NCBI GenBank assembly: GCA_964497435.1
Contig: CAZCCD010000003.1
Location: 53,683 to 117,682 of the forward strand
DNA from: Candidatus Woesearchaeota archaeon
Lineage (GTDB): Archaea > Nanobdellota > Nanobdellia > Pacearchaeales > GW2011-AR1
Direction: 5' to 3'
DNA: 64,000 nt
Within the stretch, counting starts at the first letter, position 1; every line of letters starts with the position of its first letter. The position numbers and the translations under genes were made by a program. The notes under the pieces were generated by a model. The model searched no databases. It was not told the origin of the DNA and worked only from the letters and a program-made list of their open reading frames with translations. Shown one piece after another: positions 5,204-33,348 of this stretch.

Positions 5204-5971
5204 TTACTTTATTGGAACAACTTTGTTATTAACAATTATCTGTTTTGGAACCTTACCTTTAGATTTTGAAAAATAATTCCATATTAATATAATTGCAAGT
5301 ATTATAATTATTAATCCAAACGACCTTGCTGGTGATTTAATAAAGTTATTTATACCAGAAAGGAAAGCACCTGTTATGCTATCTGTTACACTTGATTCAC
5401 ATTCCTTAAATGTTGCTGGTTTCAATGTTTCTGTCCCGCAGGCATTTTGATCTTCACAAGTTCTTGTCCCGCATTGGCCTTCTACATTACTCCATTTACT
5501 ACATGACCAGCTTTCTACACATGCTGTTGAGATTCCAGGCTCGTTATTTGAAGATATTGTGATGACAGAACCTCCACCGCCATTGCCACCATTTCCATTA
5601 CCTCCACCTCCACCGCCATTACCCCCATTGCCACCATTTCCATTAGGAGGCAATTCTCCACAACTTCTTGTGTTGAATGGTGGATCACAGTTTTTAGGCC
5701 TCAAATTTTCAGTATCGCATAAAGGATTTGTTTGGATGCAGATAAATGTCTTTTGATTATTCTCCTCACATGTCGTTTCATCCCAGAAACTTGAACTCCA
5801 ATCTTCTTGGCATCCTGCAAAAACTCCTCCGCCAGTGCTTACTTTTAAAAATCCATGCTCTGTTTCAGCGATTGAAAATCCAAATCCTCCAATAGCTAAC
5901 GCTAAAATAAACATCACAATTGCAAATTTTTTTTGTTTCATTTCCATCAGAACGTATTTAATTTTACTCAC
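5204..5971 (-). CDS. Cys-rich secreted, membrane-anchored protein with Gly/Asn-rich linker
   Basis: N-terminal signal/TM, many Cys, an NGNGGNGGNGGGGGGNGNGG linker, C-terminal TM helix. Its start overlaps the stop of the giant gene by 8 nt. Confidence 0.6.
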   Translation of the reverse strand: MSKIKYVLMEMKQKKFAIVMFILALAIGGFGFSIAETEHGFLKVSTGGGVFAGCQEDWSSSFWDETTCEENNQKTFICIQTNPLCDTENLRPKNCDPPFNTRSCGELPPNGNGGNGGNGGGGGGNGNGGNGGGGSVITISSNNEPGISTACVESWSCSKWSNVEGQCGTRTCEDQNACGTETLKPATFKECESSVTDSITGAFLSGINNFIKSPARSFGLIIIILAIILIWNYFSKSKGKVPKQIIVNNKVVPIK

Positions 5972-8900
5972 AATCTAAATCTTCAATATCTATATCTCCA
6001 TCACAATCATTATCTATTGAATCATCACAAACTTCAGTTTCAGGTACACACTCTGGCTCAGGCTCTTCACATATGTTTGTCAAAGATTCAATCCAGTATT
6101 CTAGCTCATGAACCCCAGGTCCTATCGCACTCATGTCTTCTGAATCAAGCTCAAGGTGCAATTCAAATTCTGTCCTGCCATTTATCTCACTGCATTGTAA
6201 CTGAAGGAATTCAGCATCTGTTATAAACCAGCATAATCCTGTTTCAGGGTCCCAGAAATCACCAACTTCTCCACATTCTTGTTCTGTTAAGCCAGATTCA
6301 TGCCTTAATCCAACTGTGGCACTCTCTCCTGTTTCAGGATTTGTTATTATAGCATTCATATCCCCAGGAGTCACAAGGCCTTCTATCTTATTTAGCCAGA
6401 ACTTAATGCTGTTGTCTCCCCTCATGCAAATATTGTAAGTAAAGTCACAAATACCGCCTTCTTCAGGGTCAATTCCGCATATTGCAGGGGTTATAAATTC
6501 AACAAAAATACCATCTAAAAGAGTTTCTTCAACTTCTTTACAATTTTCATTTCCATTACCATCTTCTGCACAGACCTTAAGAATATAATCTCCAGCAGGA
6601 AGTTCTTTGTTCATTATACCTTCCCATGTTACTGTCTGTCCATAATGCACAATATTTAAGTCAATTTCTCTAAGTGGTTCGTCTCCTTCATCTACAGGAG
6701 TTGCCCATAATTCAGCCCATGCTCTTATTACGCCTGATTTTTCATCATCTATTGAAGCAACTATTTTCTGGACACACATTTCTATTTCTCTTTCGTTTGA
6801 ATTAGGATTCCTTATTATTATTTCAGGACCTGCAGAGTCAACATTATCCCATTCAATGTTTGCTTCTCCAACATTTCCTAGGGCATCTCTGCAGAACCAT
6901 TCAATATTATGTAGTGAATCTTCCTGGAAGTTAAATCCATAACCATCTTCTTCTGTTAAAGAACAACAGAAAGGAACCCAATCTTGTGATTCTTCACTAT
7001 ACAATTCTTCAATTTCTCCTCCAAATTGTTTGCAATATTGCTCTGTTAAGAATGGAGGAGTTTCTTGATTATCGTCATCCCATGATATTCTATAACAAAG
7101 AGATTCATGGTCAACAGGATGTGGTTCTCCATCTTTACAGCTTAAAGTTATTGGTGTTTCACCTGTGACAAACCATGCAGGCCATTCTCCTTGAGGTCCG
7201 CATAATTCTTCATCACCTACACAAGGATATTTTGGCTCTCCAACTTCTTTATCTGTTAAAGGAGCTGTATTATCAACAAACACACACTGTTTATTCACTC
7301 TTTCTGTTTTTTCAACATTATCAACACTGTAGTATTCAATTAGGTGGCATGATTCCTCGGTTTTATAGAATGGAATGCCATGATAAGTGTTCCATTCACC
7401 TCGTCCAACAGCTTGCTGGCAAACATCTTGATTCAAACAGTTCTCATCATCAACAAGAGTATTTCTCCAGAAAGTTTCACTTATTCCAGAAGGATGAGGT
7501 GCCTGATCTCCACCATCAAGGTAAACAGCTGTTTCAGAGCTTATCCATGCAGGGAACCATTCTTCTTTTTCTTCATCAAACTCACACATTTCTTTTAAGC
7601 ATAATTCAAGTGCTTCACCATCTTCTCCAGCTTCATATCTGCACCAATCCTGACAAGTAAAGTAAGGACCATCAAATGACTTTGTTGTAACTGGTGGTGT
7701 TTTATCAACAATAAATGTTTCTTCATCAACTACTCTATTTCCTAGAGCATCTTCACACTCTATTACTAGATTATGGCTTGATTCTTCTGGGAATTGAACT
7801 ATAAACTCACTTCCAAGTTCATCATCGCCAGGTATAACATTTCCACCATTAACAGTGTAACTCCATTCACAAGTCACATCATTTACAGGATGAGGTTGAG
7901 GATCTTCAACACTAACATGAATTTCAGTAACACCATCAATATAACATACATCTTGGCTACCCGGTTTTGGAGGGCATTGTCCGTAACTAGGGCCCACAAT
8001 TTCTTTAGTTATTTTAGGAGGCACTGAATCAACAATATCAATTTCTCTATGTGGTTCTTCAGCTGTTCCATCTGAATTTCCAAGAGCATCAACACAATAC
8101 CATTCTAAAACATGTCTTGAATCTTCTTCTTTGTAAATTGTAACTTCTCCATCTTCTTCAACCCAATATTCAGGAGGCCGGCTTCCCTCTAAATAATCTC
8201 TCCAGTAAAGAGTCACATCATCTATTGGATGTGGTTCTTGATCAGCACAAGATAGAGTTATTGGAGTTTGTTGAGTTATGAACCAATCACACTGTCCATC
8301 TTGAGGTTCTGGTGGTTGACCGCCAATTCCACATGTACCTTCTTCAATTTCATAAGCTTTTAAATGATTATTCTCGAACATTCTTACCCAGATAGCACTC
8401 ACTGGGAAAGTAGCATCATCACACTCTAAATCTTCAGGCCTGTCTCCTGGTGCAGAAAATTCTCCGAGATTTGTCTTTGAGTCTTTGTCAAATCTAAATA
8501 TTTTATCCCCACCATTATTTGCTAAATATAAATCTTCTCCTCCAACAGCAATACCGCTATTCCCAAAAGGAATTCCTGGGGCAAAGCTATCAACAACTGA
8601 ACCAGTTAAATTTAATTCATAAACAGTTGGTCCAACATCACGACTAAACCATATTCTATCATCGCTGTCAGAATTTGGATCGTTTTCGTCATATGCTAAA
8701 CCATCACAAAAATGGAAATGATCTCCTGGAAGTGTTTCTATTAGTGTTACATCACCATTTAATTCTAATTTATATAACTTATTTGGAACACCATTTGAAC
8801 AAGCCCATATTACATTTCTCTTTGCATCATAACCCATTGCACCTAAATTTATTGCCGGACTTGTAGCCAACTCTCCTATTTCTGAGCCATCGTCTGGATT

Positions 8901-10544
8901 AATTAATTTTATAACTGTTGTTTCATCAGGAACATACAAAACTGTGCCATCAAAAGCTACTCCGACATTACTGAAAGCACCAACATCATCTGACATTGTT
9001 ATATCTCTAAGAAGATCTCCAGGTGAATTATGCTCTTCGTTATTTCCATTTTCTCCGTTAATATTATCTCCTCCATTTCCATTTTCCTCACAAGCAACTT
9101 TTGGCTCTCCAACTTCTTTCTTTGTGATTGGTGGCAAAGCATCAACAATATCTAATTCAAAGTGATGCCTTTCTTCATTAGTACAACCATCACTTGCCCA
9201 GTATTCAATCAAATGGCAGGAATCATCTATTAAATTCAAGTGAACATCTTCATTAGGCAATCCTTGCCCAGAATCTTTAAGAGTCCATACAGGTTCTCTT
9301 ACAGTGCAATCTTCACTAAACCATATTCTCCAATTTATTACAGGATTGTCAGAGATTTCATGGTCAGGAGTGTCGGGGTCTTCGGCAGAAAGCCAGATTT
9401 CTGTTCCAGGCTTAACATAATAGCAACCATCTGTTAAAGCATTGCCATTTGCTGTTGTATAATCACAATTAAAAGAAACCTCGTCTGCAAAATCAATTTT
9501 CTTTTCTGTTACTGGAGGAACAGTATCTTTTATGAAAGAAACAATAGGATTGAATGTGAATTTACCCCAGTTTTCTTGTCCGTCTTTTCCATGTAACTGG
9601 ACATAATGTGTTCCCTCACTTAAATCATCTAAATCAATAGTAGCTTCAACATCTTCACATCTTTCATTGAATGAGCCATCAGAAGCAGTCATTGGAATTC
9701 CCCGCCAATTTATTGGATTATCTTCATCAATAAAATATTCAGCAGCTTGTATTCTTGACTCATCATCACAGACATTTCCAGATACAATAGGATCATCACC
9801 ACAAACTAAAAGTTCTTCTGGGTTACATTCATCATTTAACTTAATTCCATTTTCATGTTGCAAATTATCTCCTTCTTCACATGTTGGGTAAAAAGGAGGC
9901 AGGCAGTCAACATCTATTCTTATTGTTTCACAATCTCCCCAATTTCCAGCAACATCTTGTCCTCTAACATGTACATTAATGCTTCCGTCTTGTGTACCCA
10001 CTCCGCTTTTTGTTACAGCTTCAACCAATGAATTATAAAGCCCGTCTGTTGCATTAAGTGGATTTCCACTCCCTTCTGCTCCGCAAGTTGCTCCTCCAAG
10101 GAAATATTCAGCTTCTGCAATTGCAGAACACTGATCAGTCTCTAAGGCATCTATTTTTATCTTGCAGGCATCAACAACTTTTACAGCAGTTAAATCAGAA
10201 GTAACAGGGCCAGTTTCGTCAGGAAACTCATTAAAAACACAACCCTGTTGAACATCACAAGAAAAATCTCCACACTGATCTCCAGGTTCACAAAGAGAAT
10301 CATCAGGAGTATAAACACATCCTGTTTGTTCGTTACAAGAATCAACTGTACAAGAAACACCATCGTCACAAACTATAGGAGTATTCACACACCCACCACC
10401 CTCAACACATTCATCTATTGTGCAGGCATTTCCGTCGTCACAGTTCTGTGGAGAACAAGCACTCACAGAAGAACCAAAATTAATTATCCCAATTATAAAT
10501 ATCAGCAAAACTAAAGAAATTTTCACGTCTTTTCTTAAACCCAT
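5964..10544 (-). CDS. Giant secreted Cys-rich surface protein (1526 aa) with CxxxNxCTxDxC repeats, beta-propeller-like region and C-terminal MopE-like CxDxDNDCDG motif
   Basis: Signal peptide MGLRKDVKISLVLLIFIIGIINFGSSVSA; repeats CDDGNACTIDEC, CDDGVSCTVDSC; C-terminus CDDSIDNDCDGDIDIED. Confidence 0.75.
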   Translation of the reverse strand: MGLRKDVKISLVLLIFIIGIINFGSSVSACSPQNCDDGNACTIDECVEGGGCVNTPIVCDDGVSCTVDSCNEQTGCVYTPDDSLCEPGDQCGDFSCDVQQGCVFNEFPDETGPVTSDLTAVKVVDACKIKIDALETDQCSAIAEAEYFLGGATCGAEGSGNPLNATDGLYNSLVEAVTKSGVGTQDGSINVHVRGQDVAGNWGDCETIRIDVDCLPPFYPTCEEGDNLQHENGIKLNDECNPEELLVCGDDPIVSGNVCDDESRIQAAEYFIDEDNPINWRGIPMTASDGSFNERCEDVEATIDLDDLSEGTHYVQLHGKDGQENWGKFTFNPIVSFIKDTVPPVTEKKIDFADEVSFNCDYTTANGNALTDGCYYVKPGTEIWLSAEDPDTPDHEISDNPVINWRIWFSEDCTVREPVWTLKDSGQGLPNEDVHLNLIDDSCHLIEYWASDGCTNEERHHFELDIVDALPPITKKEVGEPKVACEENGNGGDNINGENGNNEEHNSPGDLLRDITMSDDVGAFSNVGVAFDGTVLYVPDETTVIKLINPDDGSEIGELATSPAINLGAMGYDAKRNVIWACSNGVPNKLYKLELNGDVTLIETLPGDHFHFCDGLAYDENDPNSDSDDRIWFSRDVGPTVYELNLTGSVVDSFAPGIPFGNSGIAVGGEDLYLANNGGDKIFRFDKDSKTNLGEFSAPGDRPEDLECDDATFPVSAIWVRMFENNHLKAYEIEEGTCGIGGQPPEPQDGQCDWFITQQTPITLSCADQEPHPIDDVTLYWRDYLEGSRPPEYWVEEDGEVTIYKEEDSRHVLEWYCVDALGNSDGTAEEPHREIDIVDSVPPKITKEIVGPSYGQCPPKPGSQDVCYIDGVTEIHVSVEDPQPHPVNDVTCEWSYTVNGGNVIPGDDELGSEFIVQFPEESSHNLVIECEDALGNRVVDEETFIVDKTPPVTTKSFDGPYFTCQDWCRYEAGEDGEALELCLKEMCEFDEEKEEWFPAWISSETAVYLDGGDQAPHPSGISETFWRNTLVDDENCLNQDVCQQAVGRGEWNTYHGIPFYKTEESCHLIEYYSVDNVEKTERVNKQCVFVDNTAPLTDKEVGEPKYPCVGDEELCGPQGEWPAWFVTGETPITLSCKDGEPHPVDHESLCYRISWDDDNQETPPFLTEQYCKQFGGEIEELYSEESQDWVPFCCSLTEEDGYGFNFQEDSLHNIEWFCRDALGNVGEANIEWDNVDSAGPEIIIRNPNSNEREIEMCVQKIVASIDDEKSGVIRAWAELWATPVDEGDEPLREIDLNIVHYGQTVTWEGIMNKELPAGDYILKVCAEDGNGNENCKEVEETLLDGIFVEFITPAICGIDPEEGGICDFTYNICMRGDNSIKFWLNKIEGLVTPGDMNAIITNPETGESATVGLRHESGLTEQECGEVGDFWDPETGLCWFITDAEFLQLQCSEINGRTEFELHLELDSEDMSAIGPGVHELEYWIESLTNICEEPEPECVPETEVCDDSIDNDCDGDIDIEDLDCE

Positions 10545-10767
10545 GTTTAATTTTACATTTTAGTGTATTTAAACATTATTGTGGTGCAGGGAATATTTCG
10601 TAACTTTTAATTTAACAATAGCTAACTTTTCCAACTTGTTAATAGTGATAATATTGGTTTTTGTTTTTTAGATACCACCCAATTCTATCCAAAAGCACCT
10701 CTTACTTTACAGCTCACTATTCAGTAAATTATTTATATTCCTTTCCATTAGGTTTGATAGGAGATAA

Positions 10768-12082
10768 TATGTGGAACGATAGAAAAGACGAAGCATACAA
10801 GTTAGGAGTTAGAGACGGTCAGAGAGGCGGTTTTTTAGATGATTTTACCCATAGTCTTTCGAAAGGTATAAACACTTCTGAGAGTGATAAGGTGTATGAT
10901 GAAGGTTATGTATATGGTGCAAATCATAGGTACGATGTGAGATCTTTTGGAAAATCTGACAATTCTAAATCTGCATGGGGTTCTACAGAATCTGATAATT
11001 CTGATTTTCAGTCTTCTTATAGCGATGGGAATTCTTACGATGGTTGGAGCTCTGATAGTGGTGGGAGTTCTAAGTCAAGTGGTGGAAGTGGATTTTTCTC
11101 TTTTGTTGTTCGGACATGTATCACTATTGCCTTGCTTGGTGCTTTTATGAAAGCTTGTAATGAAAATTTTGGTGGCGATAATCGTGGGAGTATTGTGAAT
11201 ACTTATGGTCGTGGTAATCGTGGAGGTACTGGTAATCCTGTGCCTGGATACACCCCCTCTCATTATCCAGTTCCTGTCGTGCAACACACTCGTAGGAGCA
11301 ATAAAAAGTATAAAGTTAAAGCTATATATGAGGTTCGTCCAGGCGATACGATGTGGGAAATTGCTAAGACGTTTGGTGTACCCATTTCGGCGCTACTAGA
11401 GGTAAATAATATCAGTCGTGGTTCTCGTATTTATGTGGATCAAAAACTTCGTATTCCTTTGATGGCTCATAGTTTGAACGAGCAGAATGAAATCAACAGA
11501 GGCCTAGAGGTTGTGATTGCCTCTACTCCCAATAAGAATATCCAGACTACTTATAAAGTAAGGCGAGGTGACACGCTCTATGATATTGCCCGCCGATTTG
11601 GAACCACGCCTACCAATTTGCTAGAAATTAATGGACTTCATAGAAATAGCCGAATACACATAGGGCAGGAATTAAATGTAACAGGACAGGATGAAGGTGG
11701 TCGTAGAAAGAGTCTTGTGAATAAAGTTACAGAATTCCAGAAATCGGATAGTAACCAAAGCTCGATTCCGGAAATAGTAATACCTGAAAAGGAGTTCCAG
11801 AAGTTACAGAATGACATTCGTGAGATGAAGGAACAAGTTGTACGAGACAAAATTGATGCTCTGAATGAAATAGGGGAGGCATACAAGGCCCATCAAATAT
11901 CAGAAAAAGAAAAAAATGAATATGTTAAGTTAGTCACAAATTATAATCCCATTATCGATAACTTCAGAACCAAAGTAGTCGGTTTTGAAATGTTCCAAAA
12001 ACGGCAAAAAGATAAGTTAATTGAACTGATTTACAGCGATGAGATAAATTCAGATTCTATACGTGTCGCGTCTGACTTCTAG
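10768..12082 (+). CDS. LysM-domain membrane protein (2 LysM repeats, coiled-coil C-terminus)
   Basis: GGAG RBS then ATG at 10768; a central TM (FFSFVVRTCITIALLGAFM); two LysM repeats (YKVKAIYEVRPGDTMWEIAKTFGVPISALLEVNNI..., YKVRRGDTLYDIARRFGTTPTNLLEINGL...). Locally higher GC than surroundings. Confidence 0.75.
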
Positions 12083-27373: not shown

Positions 27374-28087
27374 TTATAGATGATTCAGTGAGAGATGTTC
27401 TAATACATCCCGCTCCACAAAATGCAGCTTTCCAGGAATAATAATACAAAATGGCTTTTTCATTTTTTTATCCTTTAAATTTTCAATTTTATCATATAAA
27501 ACCTTGCTTTCGTCAGTTCCTAATCTTGAACAAATAATTATTTTATCAATTTTTAATTTATATTTTTCTAAAGCTTTTTTCAGTTTACTTAAGGTCTCAT
27601 TCAGTTCTAAGCCAATATCAACAAGAATCAAAGAGTGAGCATTAATCTTTAAATTATCTTTAACAACTTCAATAAAACTATCTGCCTCATGTTTTGGAAT
27701 GCTTGTTGTTTTTCCGAATTTATAGATTTGCAAGCCTGTTTCTCCAATAGCATCTAGAATAGAAGCTGAATGAATAACTTTAATTTCCACTTTTTGTTTT
27801 TTTGCTTCTTCAATTAAAGTTATATGTGTTGTCGCCATCAAAGGATTTCCATAAACAAGCAATGCAATGTCTTGTTTTTTAGCTTCTCCAATCAAAGAAA
27901 GGTTTTCAACTTTTTCTCTGTCAGATATTTCTATTTTAATTTCAAGATGTTTTTCTAATTCTTCTTTAGTATAAGGAAGCTCAACAGTGTAACTCTCTAA
28001 GTAAACCTTTTTGCTAGATTTTATTGCATGATAGGCTTCTCTAGAATATCCTTTCATGTTTAAACCAAGACCTATGAGGTATAACAT
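27374..28087 (-). CDS. dph5: Diphthine synthase (Dph5)
   Basis: MLYLIGLGL...YLESYT N-terminus and overall tetrapyrrole-methylase-like fold of diphthine synthase. Confidence 0.75.
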   Translation of the reverse strand: MLYLIGLGLNMKGYSREAYHAIKSSKKVYLESYTVELPYTKEELEKHLEIKIEISDREKVENLSLIGEAKKQDIALLVYGNPLMATTHITLIEEAKKQKVEIKVIHSASILDAIGETGLQIYKFGKTTSIPKHEADSFIEVVKDNLKINAHSLILVDIGLELNETLSKLKKALEKYKLKIDKIIICSRLGTDESKVLYDKIENLKDKKMKKPFCIIIPGKLHFVERDVLEHLSLNHL

Positions 28088-28185
28088 ATCAAAAGAAAAA
28101 GTTAAGGGGTTTTAAAGGTTTTGAAGAATAAAAGTGGAATAAAAATGCAAAAATCTTTATATAGGGGTGTTTTATTGGTTAGGAT

Positions 28186-28416
28186 ATGGCAAAGAAAATG
28201 TCTAAAAGTCTTCCACCTTTGTACACCCTGTCTTGCAAGGCTATTGGATCAGGGGATTGTGGTTTTTCTGTGACAACCCATAGCCATGATGAAGCTAAGA
28301 AAGCTATGTGGGCGCACGCAAGATTTTCGCATCCTGAAAAACTCGAGGCAATGTCAGAAGAGCAAAAGCAAGGAATGGCAAAGATGATGAATGACTTATT
28401 GTCTAAGAAGAAGTAA
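28186..28416 (+). CDS. DUF1059-family small metal-binding protein
   Basis: CKAIGSGDCGFSVTTHSHDE...HARFSHPE pattern. Confidence 0.6.
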   Translation: MAKKMSKSLPPLYTLSCKAIGSGDCGFSVTTHSHDEAKKAMWAHARFSHPEKLEAMSEEQKQGMAKMMNDLLSKKK

Positions 28417-28564
28417 TTGTAGAAAAGATTCATTAGAAATTAATAAGAAAACATCAAGGAATAAATTGCTGTCTTTATGAATTGGCTATTTTTGATTTAG
28501 AATTAGGAAAGATGAGTGGTTGGAGTTGATGGATAATTTTTTATATGTGGTTTTTATTGTATTT

Positions 28565-28900
28565 ATAACATGGCGAAAAAGGATTATGCTAATTGGAGTA
28601 AAACCGAATTAGTTAAGGAACTTGATAAATTAAGCAAAAGAAAAAAGTATGGTATAGTTTGGGAAGAAGCTTTTATGTGATGAAATCTTTGGTGAAGACA
28701 ATTTTATAGAGAATATAATCTGGCGTAAAAAAGAAGGTAGTGGACAACAAGATGAGTACTTAGTTACTGAACATGAATATATCCTAGTTTATGCAAAAAA
28801 TAATAATGACTCTCAAAGAGAGCTTCCAGTGAACGAGGGGAAAAGCTTTATGAATATCTCAAAGAATATTTAAAGAAGACAAGAGATTCTCTAAAGTAAG
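28565..28900 (+). pseudogene. Remnants of an N6-adenine DNA methyltransferase (type III Mod/type II beta-class) gene
   Basis: Fragments in different frames: AKKDYANWSKTELVKELDKLSKRKKYGIVWEE (MTase N-terminus) and LFCDEIFGEDNFIENIIWRKKEGSGQQDEYLVTEHEYILVYAK (post-DPPY region). Interrupted by stops; no intact ORF. Confidence 0.6.
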
Positions 28901-28989
28901 TGGCTTGCTTTTTGTCTGAAGAGGATGGATTGGATAGGCGGGGAGAGATTTTTCTAAAGATTTATTAAATGTAAAAAGTTTATAATTTA

Positions 28990-29322
28990 ATGAATGGGAA
29001 TTTAGAGTATTTTGTGCAAAAGATTAATAGGTATTCTTCTAGTAATATAGAAATAACTGATTATTGCAGGGAAAAAATGAGCCAAAGAAATATTGAAGAG
29101 AGTTTGATTATCTCTACATTGTTCTCAAAAAATCTTCATTATGCTGAAGAACAATTAAAAAAACATAAAGGAACTGCTGAAAAGAGATATAAATTAATAT
29201 TCCCTATAAGTTCTAAGTATAATCTAATTATTATAGTCGCATTTTATCAAAAGGTTTTAAAAGTTGTGAATGTTATTAAAACTAGTAAGAAGTTGGAGAA
29301 ATTATGGAAAAAGCAGAAATAA
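28990..29322 (+). CDS. DUF4258-family protein (putative toxin of DUF4258/DUF2283 pair)
   Basis: 110 aa; overlaps the downstream DUF2283 gene by 19 nt, the typical pair arrangement. Confidence 0.5.
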   Translation: MNGNLEYFVQKINRYSSSNIEITDYCREKMSQRNIEESLIISTLFSKNLHYAEEQLKKHKGTAEKRYKLIFPISSKYNLIIIVAFYQKVLKVVNVIKTSKKLEKLWKKQK

Positions 29323-29657
29323 AGGTAATGTATGACAAAGACGAGGATATTTTGTCTTTGTTCAAGGAAAATAGGAAGGCCAAACTGAGCCAGGAGATTA
29401 ATCTACCGGATGGTGACCTAGTTGTTGATTTTTCCTCTGACGGATTAGTCGCAGGATTAGAGTTCTTCAACGCATCAAATTATTTTCCGTTTCTAAAAAA
29501 TGTGAAAGTTAATAATATTAGAGCTAAAATGAGCATAAAATATGGAGAGAATGCAATTAACATCTTTTATAATGTAATGGCTTCAGGAGAGAAAGATCTA
29601 CCTCTCAAACAGATTATAATTTCCCCATATAGTAAGAAGTTGGTGTTGGAGCATTGA
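29304..29657 (+). CDS. DUF2283-family protein (putative antitoxin partner)
   Basis: MEKAEIKVMYDKDEDILSL...DGDLVVDFSSDGLVAGLEFFNAS matches the DUF2283 pattern (MKIxYDxEADxLYI...GxIVGIEIxxAS). Confidence 0.6.
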   Translation: MEKAEIKVMYDKDEDILSLFKENRKAKLSQEINLPDGDLVVDFSSDGLVAGLEFFNASNYFPFLKNVKVNNIRAKMSIKYGENAINIFYNVMASGEKDLPLKQIIISPYSKKLVLEH

Positions 29658-29702
29658 TTAGCAAGATTTCTGGTTTGAAGAGGAGGATTGGTGGTGATGG
29701 GT

Positions 29703-30470
29703 TTAAATTAAACTATAATTTCCTTTTCCACTAAATTTTAACAATCCTTTGTCTCTTAATATTTGCAGTTGCTGTCTAATTTTTGCTTTAACATGGCTAT
29801 TCTTTGGATGAAGTTTTGACAATTCAACCTCATGTTTGTAAACATCTTGTAGATTAAATCGTCTCTTGTTTAATGAATGGATAGTATTTAGGATGTCACA
29901 TGTCCAACCCCTATCGTTTAAAGGTAATTTCCTCATAAAATTAATTTGCTTCCATTGCGACAATATTTTTTCTTTTTTAATTATATCTCCCTCTTCTATC
30001 ATGATTATCTTCCCTTCTGGTGGAATTTTGTTAATCAAAATGTTACATCCTACCCATCCAGCTCTTTTAGCGTTTTCTGAAAGAGGCTTCCTTTTCTCAA
30101 TAATTGATTCAGTAAAGAAGAAAAAAGGAATTAAATATAAATTTTTAACTAAATAATCTAAAGTGTACTGTAATAAAAAGAAGTTTGGTCTAAAATTATT
30201 TTTTATAGACTCAATCATTACTTTGTGAGCCCCATCATTTATTTTCTTTCCAAAATTATTTTTTTGGCTTTTTAATTGAAACTTTTCTTCACATCTTGGA
30301 CAGAAAAAATCATCGATAGGGTTGTTATTTGGAAAAGCTAAAATTTTCCTATTTGAACAATTTGGACAAAATATGTTTTTTCCCACCCACTTTTCTGTTA
30401 TAACCCTAACCCTCTGACTATTACTCTTGTACTTTTGAAACACTTCATTTTCAAAAATAGATAAATTCAT
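29703..30470 (-). CDS. DpnI-family methyl-directed (G-m6A-TC) type IIM restriction endonuclease
   Basis: YKSNSQRVRVITEKW, CPNCSN...FFCPRCEEKFQLKSQKNNF, INDGAH, RPNFFLLQYT, RKPLSENAKRAGWVGCNI, RGWTCDILNTI, and C-terminal wH KIRQQLQILRDKGLLKFSGKGNY. These closely parallel S. pneumoniae DpnI as recalled from memory. Confidence 0.7.
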   Translation of the reverse strand: MNLSIFENEVFQKYKSNSQRVRVITEKWVGKNIFCPNCSNRKILAFPNNNPIDDFFCPRCEEKFQLKSQKNNFGKKINDGAHKVMIESIKNNFRPNFFLLQYTLDYLVKNLYLIPFFFFTESIIEKRKPLSENAKRAGWVGCNILINKIPPEGKIIMIEEGDIIKKEKILSQWKQINFMRKLPLNDRGWTCDILNTIHSLNKRRFNLQDVYKHEVELSKLHPKNSHVKAKIRQQLQILRDKGLLKFSGKGNYSLI

Positions 30471-30547
30471 AGGACATATAGATTATTATTATTCATAAAT
30501 CTTTTGTTGATGATCATCTTTAAATATACTTATCGATTAATAAAAAT

Positions 30548-30865
30548 ATGAAAATAACTCAATTTACTATCCAGAGAACATTTTTTGTGCAACATAATGG
30601 AAAAATTTATTACGTGGATTATCTTAATTCAGATGGTCATATTCTTGGTTTATTAAATAGAAATAATTGGGAAATCTACAACGAAGATTCTAATGAGCTA
30701 AATATTTATTCCTTTAAGGGCGACTCTAAGAAGAAAGAGAAGGAGACAAATGACAATAGAAAACTCTTTATTAGATTAGTCAATTTTTGCATAAAACATT
30801 TTGATAATTATCAACCCTTAAAAGAAAAGACAAAAAAAGGGGAGATAAAATTGAAGAGAGCTTGA
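30548..30865 (+). CDS. Hypothetical protein (first of a tight uncharacterised pair)
   Basis: 105 aa, no motif; stop is 1 nt from the next start. Confidence 0.45.
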   Translation: MKITQFTIQRTFFVQHNGKIYYVDYLNSDGHILGLLNRNNWEIYNEDSNELNIYSFKGDSKKKEKETNDNRKLFIRLVNFCIKHFDNYQPLKEKTKKGEIKLKRA

Positions 30866-30866
30866 A

Positions 30867-31094
30867 ATGACAACTAACATAGATACAGGGGAACAAATAC
30901 CTCCATGTAAAAATCATCTTTGGCTTTATATGAAAACATTAAAACATGAAGACGGACGAGAAGGTTATATGTTGTATTGTCCTTTTTGTTGGCAAAAGAC
31001 AATTCACATCCCTGATTTTTCAGAAGAAGAATTTGTGAAAATGGTTTTTGAAAAGTATGATAAATCAAAGATTGGGAGAAGAACAATAAAATGA
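30867..31094 (+). CDS. Hypothetical small Cys/His zinc-binding-like protein
   Basis: 75 aa; CKNH...CPFC arrangement. Confidence 0.45.
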   Translation: MTTNIDTGEQIPPCKNHLWLYMKTLKHEDGREGYMLYCPFCWQKTIHIPDFSEEEFVKMVFEKYDKSKIGRRTIK

Positions 31095-31226
31095 CCCCCA
31101 TTTAACCTTTCCCCTCTTCCCCCTCAACTCCGCCGTCTACATCCTCTACTCCCTAACTTCTGATGAGATAAAAATAGTTGAGGAGAGTCTGAAATGATGG
31201 CAAAATCCTGAATTTCCTTAACCTAT

Positions 31227-31739
31227 ATGTCTACAGAAAGTTTTATAAATAATGTAGACATATATAATCTTATGGTTTATACAGAGATTCAGGAAAGAAA
31301 TAATAAGAAGTATTTTTATAGAGTTATTTCTATCAGAAAAAGAAATAGAGTTTCAAAAAAAAGAAAATACTTAGGTGTTAACTTATCTGTAAAAGAATTA
31401 ACTAAAAAAGAAAAAAGAGCAGATGAGGAGTTTAGAGTAAAAAATGAGGATGCAAATAAAAGAGCCATAGAAAAAATAAAGCCAAGAATAATTAAAATTT
31501 TAAAGAAAAATAAGATAAAGAAGGCAGGCATATTCGGAAGTTTTGTAAAAGGAAAACTGAAAAAAAATAGTGATATTGATATTTTAATAGAACCAGCAAA
31601 GGGGATGGGTTTAGAATTTGTCGGGGTTAAATTAGAGTTAGAGGATGAACTTGGAAGAAAGGTTGATTTAGTCACTTACAAAGGGATCCATCCTTTAATT
31701 AAAAGAAAGATTTTAGAAGAAGAGATAAGAATATTATGA
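31227..31739 (+). CDS. Nucleotidyltransferase (MNT/MntA-like, Pol-beta superfamily) with basic N-terminal extension
   Basis: GIFGSFVKGKLKKNSDIDILIE reads as GxxGSxxxG...DxDxL. The 5' end lies in an 11-bp inverted repeat (atatgtctaca...tgtagacatat). Confidence 0.65.
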   Translation: MSTESFINNVDIYNLMVYTEIQERNNKKYFYRVISIRKRNRVSKKRKYLGVNLSVKELTKKEKRADEEFRVKNEDANKRAIEKIKPRIIKILKKNKIKKAGIFGSFVKGKLKKNSDIDILIEPAKGMGLEFVGVKLELEDELGRKVDLVTYKGIHPLIKRKILEEEIRIL

Positions 31740-32098
31740 AACGAGGATTAAGATTATTTATAGAAGATATATTAGAATCAATTAGATTAATAGAAAGATA
31801 CGTTAGGAATGTCTCTAAGGAGAATCTCGGCAATGACCAGAAATTAAAAGATTCTGTTGTAAGAAGATTAGAAATAATTGGAGAGGCAGTTAAAAATATT
31901 CCAGATAATTTTAGAGAAAAATATCCAAAAGTTCCTTGGAAAAAAATTGTGGGGTTAAGAGATATTATAATTCATACATATTTTAACATAGACTTCGATA
32001 TTACATGGAATATTATTAAAAAAGACCTTCCAGACCTAAAAGAAAAAATGTTGAAAATAAAAACTGAAGTAGAAGCCGAAGAAAAAAGAGGGCAGTAA
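31736..32098 (+). CDS. HEPN-domain protein (DUF86/HepT-like RNase toxin)
   Basis: RLEIIGEAVKNIP...YPKVPWKKIVGLRDIIIH Rx4-6H motif; ATGA overlap with the MNT gene. Confidence 0.7.
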   Translation: MKRGLRLFIEDILESIRLIERYVRNVSKENLGNDQKLKDSVVRRLEIIGEAVKNIPDNFREKYPKVPWKKIVGLRDIIIHTYFNIDFDITWNIIKKDLPDLKEKMLKIKTEVEAEEKRGQ

Positions 32099-32161
32099 AG
32101 AGGATTAATTCCTTTAAACCTTCCCCCAAATCCTTATAAACCATTATTTCTTCAATATTTC

Positions 32162-32575
32162 ATGGCATTAGATTTCAACGTTAATCTTCTTGCAGTCCTT
32201 ATTGCAGGAATAGCTGGCATGGTTGTTGGATGGTTATGGTATGGCCCTTTATTTGGAAAAGTCTGGATGAAACTTTCTAACATGTCTAAAAAAGACATGG
32301 ATGTTGCAAAGAAAAAAGGCATGGGAAAATTATATCTCGCTGCCTTAATAGCAACTTTAATCAGCTCTTATGTTCTTGCCTTGTTCATAGGCACTGTTGG
32401 AACAGGATTAAACTCAGCCCTATTAGTCGCTTTTTTTGTCTGGCTCGGTTTCATAGCAACAATACAATTAAGCCCTGTCTTGTGGCAGAATCAGCCTGTT
32501 TCATTGTTTATACTTAATGCTGCTTATTACCTTGTTTCTTATGAAGTAATGGCAATAATTTTGAGTTTGTGGTAA
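32162..32575 (+). CDS. DUF1761-family membrane protein
   Basis: LIAGIAGMVVGWLWYGPLFGKVW signature; 4 TM helices. Confidence 0.55.
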   Translation: MALDFNVNLLAVLIAGIAGMVVGWLWYGPLFGKVWMKLSNMSKKDMDVAKKKGMGKLYLAALIATLISSYVLALFIGTVGTGLNSALLVAFFVWLGFIATIQLSPVLWQNQPVSLFILNAAYYLVSYEVMAIILSLW

Positions 32576-32663
32576 ATCATTTAATAATCCGGCATTTGTC
32601 TTTCTATAAATTCTATTATTTTAGTTTAGTGATTAGAACTCTTCCAGCATTAATCCAGATTTC

Positions 32664-33056
32664 TTAAGCAGGAATCTTCTTTTTTTCTAAAATATAAGAT
32701 TTAGTAAGTATCCAATCAAGTTTTATAAGATTCTGAACAAAAGCATTTTCAAGATTAAGTTTATAATAATCAGACTTTCCAATTCTCCTTGTTTTTACAA
32801 CGAAACCAGATTCTATAAATTTATCGATGAATTTTTTAAGGCTGTTATAACTAACATTACTCTCCCTTGCTATTTCAGTAAGTGGAAAATCAAAAAAATG
32901 ATTCTCTATCATAAAATCAATTACTCTAAGCTGAGGAGTATCTCCAAACTGCTCCAAAAACAAAGACTTTTCTTTTTTAGTTCTCATACTATTTTTTAGA
33001 TTAACTAGTTTATAAATATTTCTATTGAAGCAAAGATATTTCTTTTTTAGAAACAT
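32664..33056 (-). CDS. Winged-helix DNA-binding protein (start possibly the internal MRTKKEK)
   Basis: QLRVIDFMIENHFFDFPLTEIARESNVSYNSLKKFIDKFIESGFVVKTRRIG is wHTH-like. Confidence 0.5.
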   Translation of the reverse strand: MFLKKKYLCFNRNIYKLVNLKNSMRTKKEKSLFLEQFGDTPQLRVIDFMIENHFFDFPLTEIARESNVSYNSLKKFIDKFIESGFVVKTRRIGKSDYYKLNLENAFVQNLIKLDWILTKSYILEKKKIPA

Positions 33057-33084
33057 TTAAAAATTATAGAAACAATACTTAGAA

Positions 33085-33348
33085 ATGTTATTAGAAGTGG
33101 AAAAGGCACAAATTCTATCCAAGCTCGCAAGAGGAAAAGGAAACTGGGGCGCAAAATATGACAGGTTGGAGCATTTCAAAAGATTTCCAAATCTCGATAG
33201 AATAATAAAGGAGTTAGCGAATAAAGGATGGATAATTATTTGCAAAAAACCAGATTATATAGGAATATCATTAAACCCAAGATACAAGAGAGAAATTATT
33301 GGATTTGTAGAGGAAAAACTACCTTATCTAAAAGGAATGATTAAATAA
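33085..33348 (+). CDS. Hypothetical small protein
   Basis: 87-aa ORF divergent from the wHTH gene. Confidence 0.35.
   Translation: MLLEVEKAQILSKLARGKGNWGAKYDRLEHFKRFPNLDRIIKELANKGWIIICKKPDYIGISLNPRYKREIIGFVEEKLPYLKGMIK

Follow-up and report, generated by a model that had tools for sequence, protein, structure and literature searches.

A 64-kb stretch of contig CAZCCD010000003.1 (64,000 nucleotides, hereafter the window) carries an intact gene, at 29703-30470 on the minus strand, whose 255-aa product we take to be a stand-alone methyl-directed (type IIM) restriction endonuclease of the DpnI family, encoded by a DPANN archaeon that resembles Pacearchaeota and Nanoarchaeota. The remnant of a type III modification (mod) gene that lies in the same islet is, in our judgement, a neighbour of the nuclease gene and not its former partner. 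We assign this reading a probability of roughly 0.78; it is carried by the family placement and residue conservation of the nuclease and by the traceable, separate origin of the mod remnant.

The nuclease is an entry in the window's list of open reading frames (ORFs), and two Pfam families jointly span its whole length: PF06044 (DpnI) matched residues 5-181 with an E-value (E) of 1.1e-70, scoring 237.5 bits against a gathering cut-off of 26.7 and covering profile positions 4-182 of 183, while PF17726 (DpnI_C) matched residues 186-252 with E 5.9e-28 and 97.3 bits against a cut-off of 23. A phmmer comparison with R.DpnI (PDB 4ESJ) gave E 3.3e-77 and aligned query residues 6-253 to chain residues 8-255; the two proteins are 45% identical and collinear over 248 residues. 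The PADLOC model mREase_II, described as 'Type II methyl-directed restriction enzyme', matched over 253 of its 256 positions (E 2.2e-87). An AlphaFold2 (AF2) model, for which 46 homologues were supplied, reached a mean predicted local distance difference test score (pLDDT) of 92.9 and superposed in Foldseek on 4ESJ with template-modelling (TM) scores of 0.89-0.94 and root-mean-square deviations of 1.9-2.4 Å; DpnI structures were its sole strong PDB neighbours, and its C-terminal domain is made up of three helices and a three-stranded sheet. Because Pfam, PDB, PADLOC and AF2 all agree, a chance match is excluded; no NCBIfam model covers the protein. A first-pass annotation of this DNA had put the ORF at exactly this position and strand and had described it as DpnI-like, with a PD-(D/E)XK-type N-terminal domain and a C-terminal winged helix, and both statements are borne out, the latter by Pfam, 4ESJ and AF2 together.

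Residue roles were taken from two studies of DpnI structure (PMC3424567, PMC4117772), which define the catalytic residues E25, D53, E64 and K66, a zinc site of four cysteines, base contacts at Q18, N48, R126 and R135, a methyl-binding cleft formed by L129, R135 and W138 and backed by G140, and a winged-helix recognition helix with E228, K229, R231, Q232 and Q235. On alignment to 4ESJ, the archaeal protein has the DpnI residue at Q18, E25, N48, D53, K66, R126, L129, R135, W138 and G140, at K229, R231, Q232 and Q235 of the winged helix, and at all four zinc cysteines. In its own numbering the kept residues include C35/C38/C57/C60, E26, D54, K67, R127, L130, R136, W139 and G141 of the N-terminal domain and K230, R232, Q233 and Q236 of the recognition helix. 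Just two of the listed functional residues differ, E64 being replaced by Q65 and E228 by A229; the parallel with DpnI that the first-pass annotation had drawn almost motif by motif holds for nearly all catalytic, contact and zinc residues and breaks down at these two. The E228 position is variable across the DpnI family, where D, A, P or E is found.

The substitution at the E64 position is shared widely. E25, D53, K66 and the zinc cysteines are invariant in the 120 best homologues, among which the E64 position is E in 64 and Q in 56; across 192 distinct family members the counts are 122 E and 70 Q, and on a neighbour-joining tree of these members about three changes account for the distribution. 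The nuclease is placed in a clade of 63 leaves, 60 of them Q, and it and the eight close relatives that we examined are all Q-type. The residues that form the methyl pocket and those that contact bases do not vary in either the E or the Q subfamily. Since Q occurs in 70 of the 192 members and these form a near-monophyletic subfamily, an acidic residue at this position does not define the family. We considered Q65 (codon at 30276-30278) as a sign of decay and rejected this, as Q is clade-wide and the other catalytic residues are conserved.

There is a precedent of sorts for such a site: in its list of nuclease-domain fusions, one paper gives PD-QXK for the catalytic domain of Mrr, so that Mrr-type domains likewise have a glutamine at the second 'acidic' position (PMC11037411). 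This is analogy only, because Mrr-type domains have no detectable sequence relation to DpnI, carry other sensor domains and cleave at a distance. Mrr and MspJI are active modification-dependent enzymes. Conservation within the family and the Mrr-type precedent suggest that Q65 is a stable functional variant and that the enzyme is probably competent for catalysis.

By homology to DpnI, the nuclease would act as a monomer, with its Zn-stabilised PD-(D/Q)XK domain and its winged helix each expected to read fully methylated Gm6ATC, that is, GATC carrying N6-methyladenine (m6A), and with both strands probably nicked in turn inside the GATC site; for DpnI itself, a mechanism in which both domains read two closely spaced methyls has been described (PMC3424567, PMC4117772). 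Incoming DNA from Dam-type-methylating hosts or viruses would be destroyed and the cell's own unmethylated GATC spared; the host would have to lack GATC adenine methylation. A host without Gm6ATC is consistent with the lack of any methylase ORF in the 64 kb: we found no intact amino-methylase in the window ([DNS]PP[YFWH] in a methylase context), and in particular none that is Dam-like, the dead mod remnant being the only methylase sequence there.

The host assignment rests on the rest of the window, which is AT-rich (about 31% GC) and whose housekeeping genes, encoding an arginyl-tRNA synthetase (ArgRS), a class I aminoacyl-tRNA synthetase and an aIF5B-type GTPase, are archaeal. The best named relatives of the ArgRS come from metagenome-assembled genomes (MAGs) of Candidatus Pacearchaeota and Nanoarchaeota, at 62-69% identity, which agrees with the DPANN-type label that the DNA had been given before.

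Pieces of a decayed N6-adenine methylase had also been recognized near the nuclease gene at first pass, and this part of the description stands. The open stretch at 28658-28873 (+), whose frame carries LLCDEIFGEDNFIENIIWRKKEG...HEYILVYAK and which reads ...LLCDEIFGEDNFIENIIWRKKEGSGQQDEYLVTEHEYILVYAK..., matches PF01555 (N6_N4_Mtase) with 31.9 bits (E 1.7e-7), above the gathering score, over profile positions 64-110 of 221. The short ORF at 28570-28680 (+) starts MAKKDYANWSKTELVKELDKLSKRKKYGIVWE (MAKKDY...YGIVWEE), and its first 32 residues are identical to the starts of database methylases that run on into ...IDPPYNTG.... A Pfam search of the fragment gave PF01555 alone and nothing Dam- or DpnM-like (alpha class, PF02086).

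The class of this methylase can be narrowed further. When the N-terminal part of a relative, P0123, was joined to remnant 2 (Table 1), the best PDB matches were type III Mod proteins (6K0W, E 5e-23; EcoP15I Mod, 4ZCF, E 3e-20), and MboIIA, CcrM and RsrI-type enzymes scored far below them. The joined sequence aligns to Mod residues ~50-265, and remnant and P0123 share with type III Mod a YG(I/L)VWE-type N-terminus and an EIFGE(D/E)NF...HEYILVYAK block. Remnant 2 is 50% identical in amino-acid sequence to residues 157-202 of the intact Mod on metagenomic contig L091 and is out of frame with remnant 1. Unlike a complete type III Mod, the window keeps ~80-100 of ~579 residues, in two frames: DPPY, the target-recognition domain, the S-adenosylmethionine (AdoMet) motifs and a res gene are missing, and Mod residues ~34-156 and all those after ~205 are gone. 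On this sequence evidence the pieces within 28532-28873 are best read as beta-class N6-adenine methylase remnants of a type III mod pseudogene.

An intact relative of this pseudogene could be traced. Over the 136 bp at window positions 28532-28667, identity to each of the metagenomic contigs L082 and L091 is 96%, and the window shares nothing else with them. On L091 this sequence is the beginning of an intact mod gene for a 579-aa protein (PF01555, E 1.6e-38), which overlaps, stop on start, the gene of a 726-aa ResIII/Helicase_C protein, and a Rep_1 rolling-circle replication gene lies just upstream of mod. The element recurs on L082 (97% identity over 1,657 bp), there with a mod gene independently truncated at 143 aa and on a contig without a DpnI gene. 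Only a search of metagenome contigs for exact 32-mer DNA matches brought up the intact relative; applied to viral contigs, this search gave no match, and a word-indexed homologue search with the joined fragments returned 7 short proteins only. Because the 5' 136 bp match an intact mod that has res after it and Rep_1 before it, the remnants appear to be the wreck of a separate, mobile type III restriction-modification (R-M) system on a Rep-bearing element.

On the two contigs (L091:6439-11704 and L082:681-2386), which are otherwise unrelated to the window, a Rep_1 gene and a small zinc-ribbon ORF accompany the type III mod-res operon, and the shared 136-bp stretch corresponds to the promoter region and the first 33 mod codons. 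L082 also bears TP_methylase, Methyltrans_RNA and ribosomal L10 genes of bacterial look, and for this reason the mod element may pass between bacteria resembling the candidate phyla radiation (CPR) and DPANN archaea. A Logan contig, L001, from an independent short-read assembly of run SRR12113430, is 100% identical to window positions 28835-31030 and breaks inside the mod remnant at 28835, where there may be strain heterogeneity or a repeat.

The fragments had been interpreted at first as the nuclease's own former methylase, lost from an R-M system in an exchange like that of pneumococcal DpnII for DpnI, and this we now regard as the least probable of the explanations considered. It would suit the presence of a decayed N6-adenine methylase within 1 kb of the nuclease gene, and comparable arrangements exist: truncated beta-class or Dam-like fragments abut the DpnI-like gene at five bacterial loci (L018, L019, L031, L053 and L061), and frameshifted methylases directly beside DpnI-like genes have been reported and explained as 'avoidance of genomic conflict' by Helbrecht et al. 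2024 (PMC11037411). Those published cases resemble the window in combining a PD-(D/E)XK-winged-helix nuclease with an inactivated amino-methylase nearby, but there the methylase is directly adjacent, whereas here it is what is left of a type III mod gene, for which a mobile origin is indicated independently, and it lies two genes off on the other strand. Indeed, the remnants lie ~830 bp from the nuclease on one side only, behind two intact genes at its 3' end, and the earlier description of a nuclease 'flanked by' methylase fragments has to be withdrawn. The remnant is, moreover, type III Mod-like and not Dam/DpnM- or DpnA-like; its intact relative sits in a mod-res operon, with a Res partner of its own, beside a Rep gene; and the sister copy decayed on L082 with no DpnI gene on the contig. 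Nor did we find the other debris that such an exchange might leave: there is no DpnII-like nuclease among the islet ORFs (Pfam, PADLOC), no conventional GATC nuclease and no Res or Rep similarity anywhere in the window, and no methylase, Res or Rep remnant on the nuclease's other side or elsewhere in it. With no link to GATC and no DpnII-like remnant, the analogy to a DpnII-to-DpnI cassette exchange is not supported. A second way to connect the two genes is genome conflict, in which a mobile type III mod would have made m6A that the nuclease could attack, either at a site that includes GATC or at star sites, and would have been selected for inactivation. This is unlikely in our view, although the closeness of mod remnant and nuclease in one islet, the conflict-avoidance logic and inactivated methylases of the published DpnI-like cases (PMC11037411), and the star activity of DpnI on m6A outside GATC (PMC3424567) would all accord with it. 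The deletion of the target-recognition domain makes the specificity of the mod gene unreadable, mod is truncated also on L082, in the absence of a neighbouring DpnI gene, and mobile R-M genes commonly decay without any conflict. Type III Mod enzymes, furthermore, methylate one strand of asymmetric sites, whereas DpnI prefers fully methylated GATC.

We asked what accompanies the nuclease in its nearest relatives, a set of nine distinct close homologues made up of the window protein and eight others at 57-62% identity. An intact DPPY methylase of 272-278 aa lies 61-104 bp downstream on the same strand in four of the nine (L085/86, L087/88, L002 and L095), and the remaining five (the window, L083/84, L092, L093 and L094) have no downstream methylase. 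The partner methylase is closest to CcrM (PDB 6PBD, E 4e-56), and its score with the NCBIfam CcrM model, 235-245 bits, is far below the equivalog cut-off; CcrM is a GANTC enzyme. Among themselves the partner methylases are 76-86% identical, as against 61-71% for the nucleases, and the nucleases of partnered L087 and solitary L094 are 78% identical. Because partnered and solitary copies are intermixed, the function of the nuclease is probably the same in both settings. A purely methyl-dependent nuclease fits the pairing only if the partner methylase makes no Gm6ATC, and the simplest reading is that the partner has a non-GATC specificity, in keeping with its resemblance to CcrM and with the way in which paired nucleases are interspersed among solitary ones. 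No trace of a CcrM-like partner was detected in the window by tblastn; the partner of the close relatives is thus not what decayed there.

The paired loci (L085:6001-7664, L087:6001-7668, L095:4001-5681 and L002:32-1600 (approx.)) come mostly from DPANN MAGs. The idea that the presence of an adjacent methylase can be predicted from E or Q at position 64 was tried and rejected (11 of 57 E-type against 8 of 23 Q-type loci). At one bacterial locus, L074 (~9000-12000), the DpnI-like gene is beside an intact Dam-like methylase, 3 bp upstream; this locus and those at which truncated fragments abut the nuclease gene fit 'dam-replacing' insertions and the published cases of genome conflict. The seed of the Dam detector was E. 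coli Dam, used for detection only.

The composition of the window adds a further observation. Of all 256 tetranucleotides GATC has the lowest ratio of observed to expected counts, with 83 sites where a maximal-order Markov model predicts 171 (ratio 0.48, z -8.1), and GANTC is not depleted. Sites near the locus lie at 28247, 29595, 30512 and 31685. For 65 loci that bear a DpnI gene and are 10 kb or longer, the median GATC ratio is 0.74, and 23 of them, including Streptococcus oralis, are below 0.6; at L057 there is no GATC where 58 are expected. As a methyl-dependent enzyme spares unmethylated GATC, the depletion would not stem from the nuclease itself and is more likely a trace of earlier encounters with enzymes that cut GATC.

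Several of these observations weigh against a stand-alone, methyl-dependent nuclease, and some of them would favour a Q subfamily that is not methyl-dependent at all, comprising either conventional methylation-blocked enzymes with a CcrM-like partner, in which case the window would encode an orphan endonuclease, or non-cutting binders of m6A or GATC. Q65 occupies the position at which an E64A mutation abolishes the activity of DpnI (PMC3424567), and our literature search found no report of a characterised member of the Q subfamily. In four of the nine close relatives the nuclease is paired with an intact DPPY methylase that is better conserved than the nuclease itself, and a methyl-dependent enzyme alone does not account for GATC being the most depleted tetramer in the window. 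To these points are added the 64-kb scope of the methylase survey and, with the specificity of the mod remnant unreadable, the possibility of a past conflict between mod and nuclease. We nevertheless consider a Q subfamily without methyl-dependence distinctly improbable: the methyl pocket and base contacts are invariant in both subfamilies, partnered L087 and solitary L094 are similar enough that their function is probably the same, and the 64 kb alone contain 83 GATC sites that would be exposed to a conventional GATC nuclease if no methylase protected them. Adjacent methylases are, besides, found with E-type members too (11 of 57), and a CcrM-like partner acting on GANTC would not conflict with a Gm6ATC-dependent nuclease. 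Glutamine at the E64 position is, finally, cited within the motif of the Mrr catalytic domain (PMC11037411). We are just as doubtful that the Q-subfamily nuclease and the CcrM-like methylase form a coupled module of a new type, of which the window copy would be a solitary derivative; were this so, methylation-triggered self-cleavage could serve as abortive infection, or methyl-dependence could be reversed, and, with a methylase that acts on GATC or is functionally coupled, the GATC depletion may be its footprint.

Along the islet the order of genes is mod remnant, DUF2283 pair, nuclease, two small ORFs and an MNT-HepT pair, at which PADLOC called PDC-S09 (31227-32098). None of the neighbours at 28990-29657 and 30548-31094, nor the MNT-HepT pair, is conserved beside DpnI homologues elsewhere; because of this, the nuclease is a self-contained module in a variable islet of defence and toxin-antitoxin genes. 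The positions of all features are collected in Table 1.

Table 1. Features of the nuclease islet, in window coordinates
Feature	Position	Strand	Evidence
Type III mod gene, remnant 1: codons 1-33 and the 38 bp before them, ending at a deletion junction	28532..28667	+	96% identity to L082/L091
Remnant 2 of a mod gene: Mod residues ~157-202 (after motif IV)	28658..28873	+	PF01555, L091 Mod
Genes of a 110-aa protein (28990-29322) and a 117-aa DUF2283 protein (29304-29657), overlapping by 19 bp	28990..29657	+	DUF2283, E 2.7e-8
Predicted DpnI-family (type IIM) endonuclease gene, intact, Q-subfamily (D54/Q65/K67, own numbering)	29703..30470	-	Pfam, PDB, PADLOC, AF2/Foldseek
Winged-helix domain at the C-terminus (residues 186-252); its DpnI counterpart is the second reader of Gm6ATC	29715..29915	-	PF17726
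PD-(D/E)XK-type catalytic N-terminal domain with Cys4 zinc site, residues 5-181	29928..30458	-	PF06044
Pair of small ORFs (105 aa, 75 aa) in divergent orientation to the nuclease gene	30548..31094	+	No family hits
MNT nucleotidyltransferase and HepT (HEPN) toxin-antitoxin pair, overlapping genes	31227..32098	+	Polbeta/NTP_transf_2, E 6.5e-16; HepT-like, E 6.3e-31

Compared with R.DpnI of Streptococcus pneumoniae (PDB 4ESJ/4KYW; type IIM, Gm6A^TC), the window protein agrees in length, in two-domain architecture and in being encoded by a stand-alone gene, but it differs in the E64 to Q and E228 to A replacements and in its archaeal host, and the window shows no sign of the DpnI/DpnII cassette polymorphism and no evident counterpart of the pneumococcal dpnD beside the nuclease gene. 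Much closer are annotated DpnI genes of DPANN and CPR genomes, among which the named DPANN homologues HLD43519.1 (Nanoarchaeia), MBW2974602.1 (Woesearchaeota), and MBU1004627.1 and MDO8460299.1 (both Nanoarchaeota) are 58-62% identical to the nuclease, of the same size and likewise of the Q subfamily. Such genes also lie in small defence or toxin-antitoxin islets, for example with MNT/HEPN pairs; the differences are that four of the nine carry the CcrM-like methylase, which the window does not, and that flanks are not conserved.

Homologues of the nuclease number 7,816 proteins at E<=1e-10. Public databases already contain dozens of DPANN homologues and the identical protein, the latter in NCBI on a 124-kb contig and in a Logan assembly, and GenBank lists close homologues from Nanoarchaeia, Nanoarchaeota, Woesearchaeota and Altiarchaeota under the names 'DpnI domain-containing protein' or 'restriction endonuclease'. 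Among the matches listed, the family extends to Patescibacteria, Proteobacteria, Acidobacteriota, Firmicutes, Methanosarcinales and Thermoplasmata, and a scan of genome contigs returned, again among the matches listed, mostly bacterial members at 44-51% identity. The novelty suggested at first pass, whose author was not aware of a type IIM system described in a DPANN-type archaeon, is overstated in view of these annotated genes; we found no paper on a biochemically characterised DpnI-type enzyme from DPANN. The novelty would thus be a taxon record and not a new kind of system. Published surveys form the background to it: of more than 1,000 winged-helix fusion nucleases surveyed by Helbrecht et al. 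2024, 87% were stand-alone (PMC11037411), and a 2023 survey of archaeal R-M systems covered six DPANN genomes only (PMC10609329).

The locus nevertheless offers a clean example of m6A-dependent restriction within the DPANN defence repertoire, and it illustrates that an inactive methylase gene close to that of a methyl-dependent nuclease is not necessarily its former partner. An episymbiotic DPANN cell with this enzyme would be expected to discriminate against DNA from GATC-methylating archaea or their viruses, given that a number of archaeal lineages, Methanomicrobiales, Nitrososphaerota and Halorubraceae among them, have persistent Dam-like methylation of GATC (PMC10609329).

As for the minor features of the islet, the overlapping pair next to the nuclease has an architecture that looks toxin-antitoxin-like by analogy. 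No family was found for its 110-aa member or for the two small ORFs on the far side, with Pfam, NCBIfam and PADLOC among the searches. MNT/HEPN pairs also adjoin DpnI homologues in L083, L093 and L094, and these are not orthologous in sequence to the window pair. A search for island boundaries and for direct or inverted repeats in 27900-33200 gave just short AT-rich chance matches, a promoter and terminator scan with bacterial models, which are not applicable to archaea, did no better than on shuffled sequence, and tRNA and Rfam scans of the window returned nothing.

Elsewhere in the window, two LysM domains (E 2.7e-31) are present in a 473-aa protein (10661-12082), next to which lies a 1,526-aa protein (5964-10544) whose sole match is the cysteine-rich Dicty_CTDC repeat. 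LysM being a peptidoglycan- or chitin-binding domain, the 473-aa protein may relate to the attachment of the DPANN archaeon to its host.

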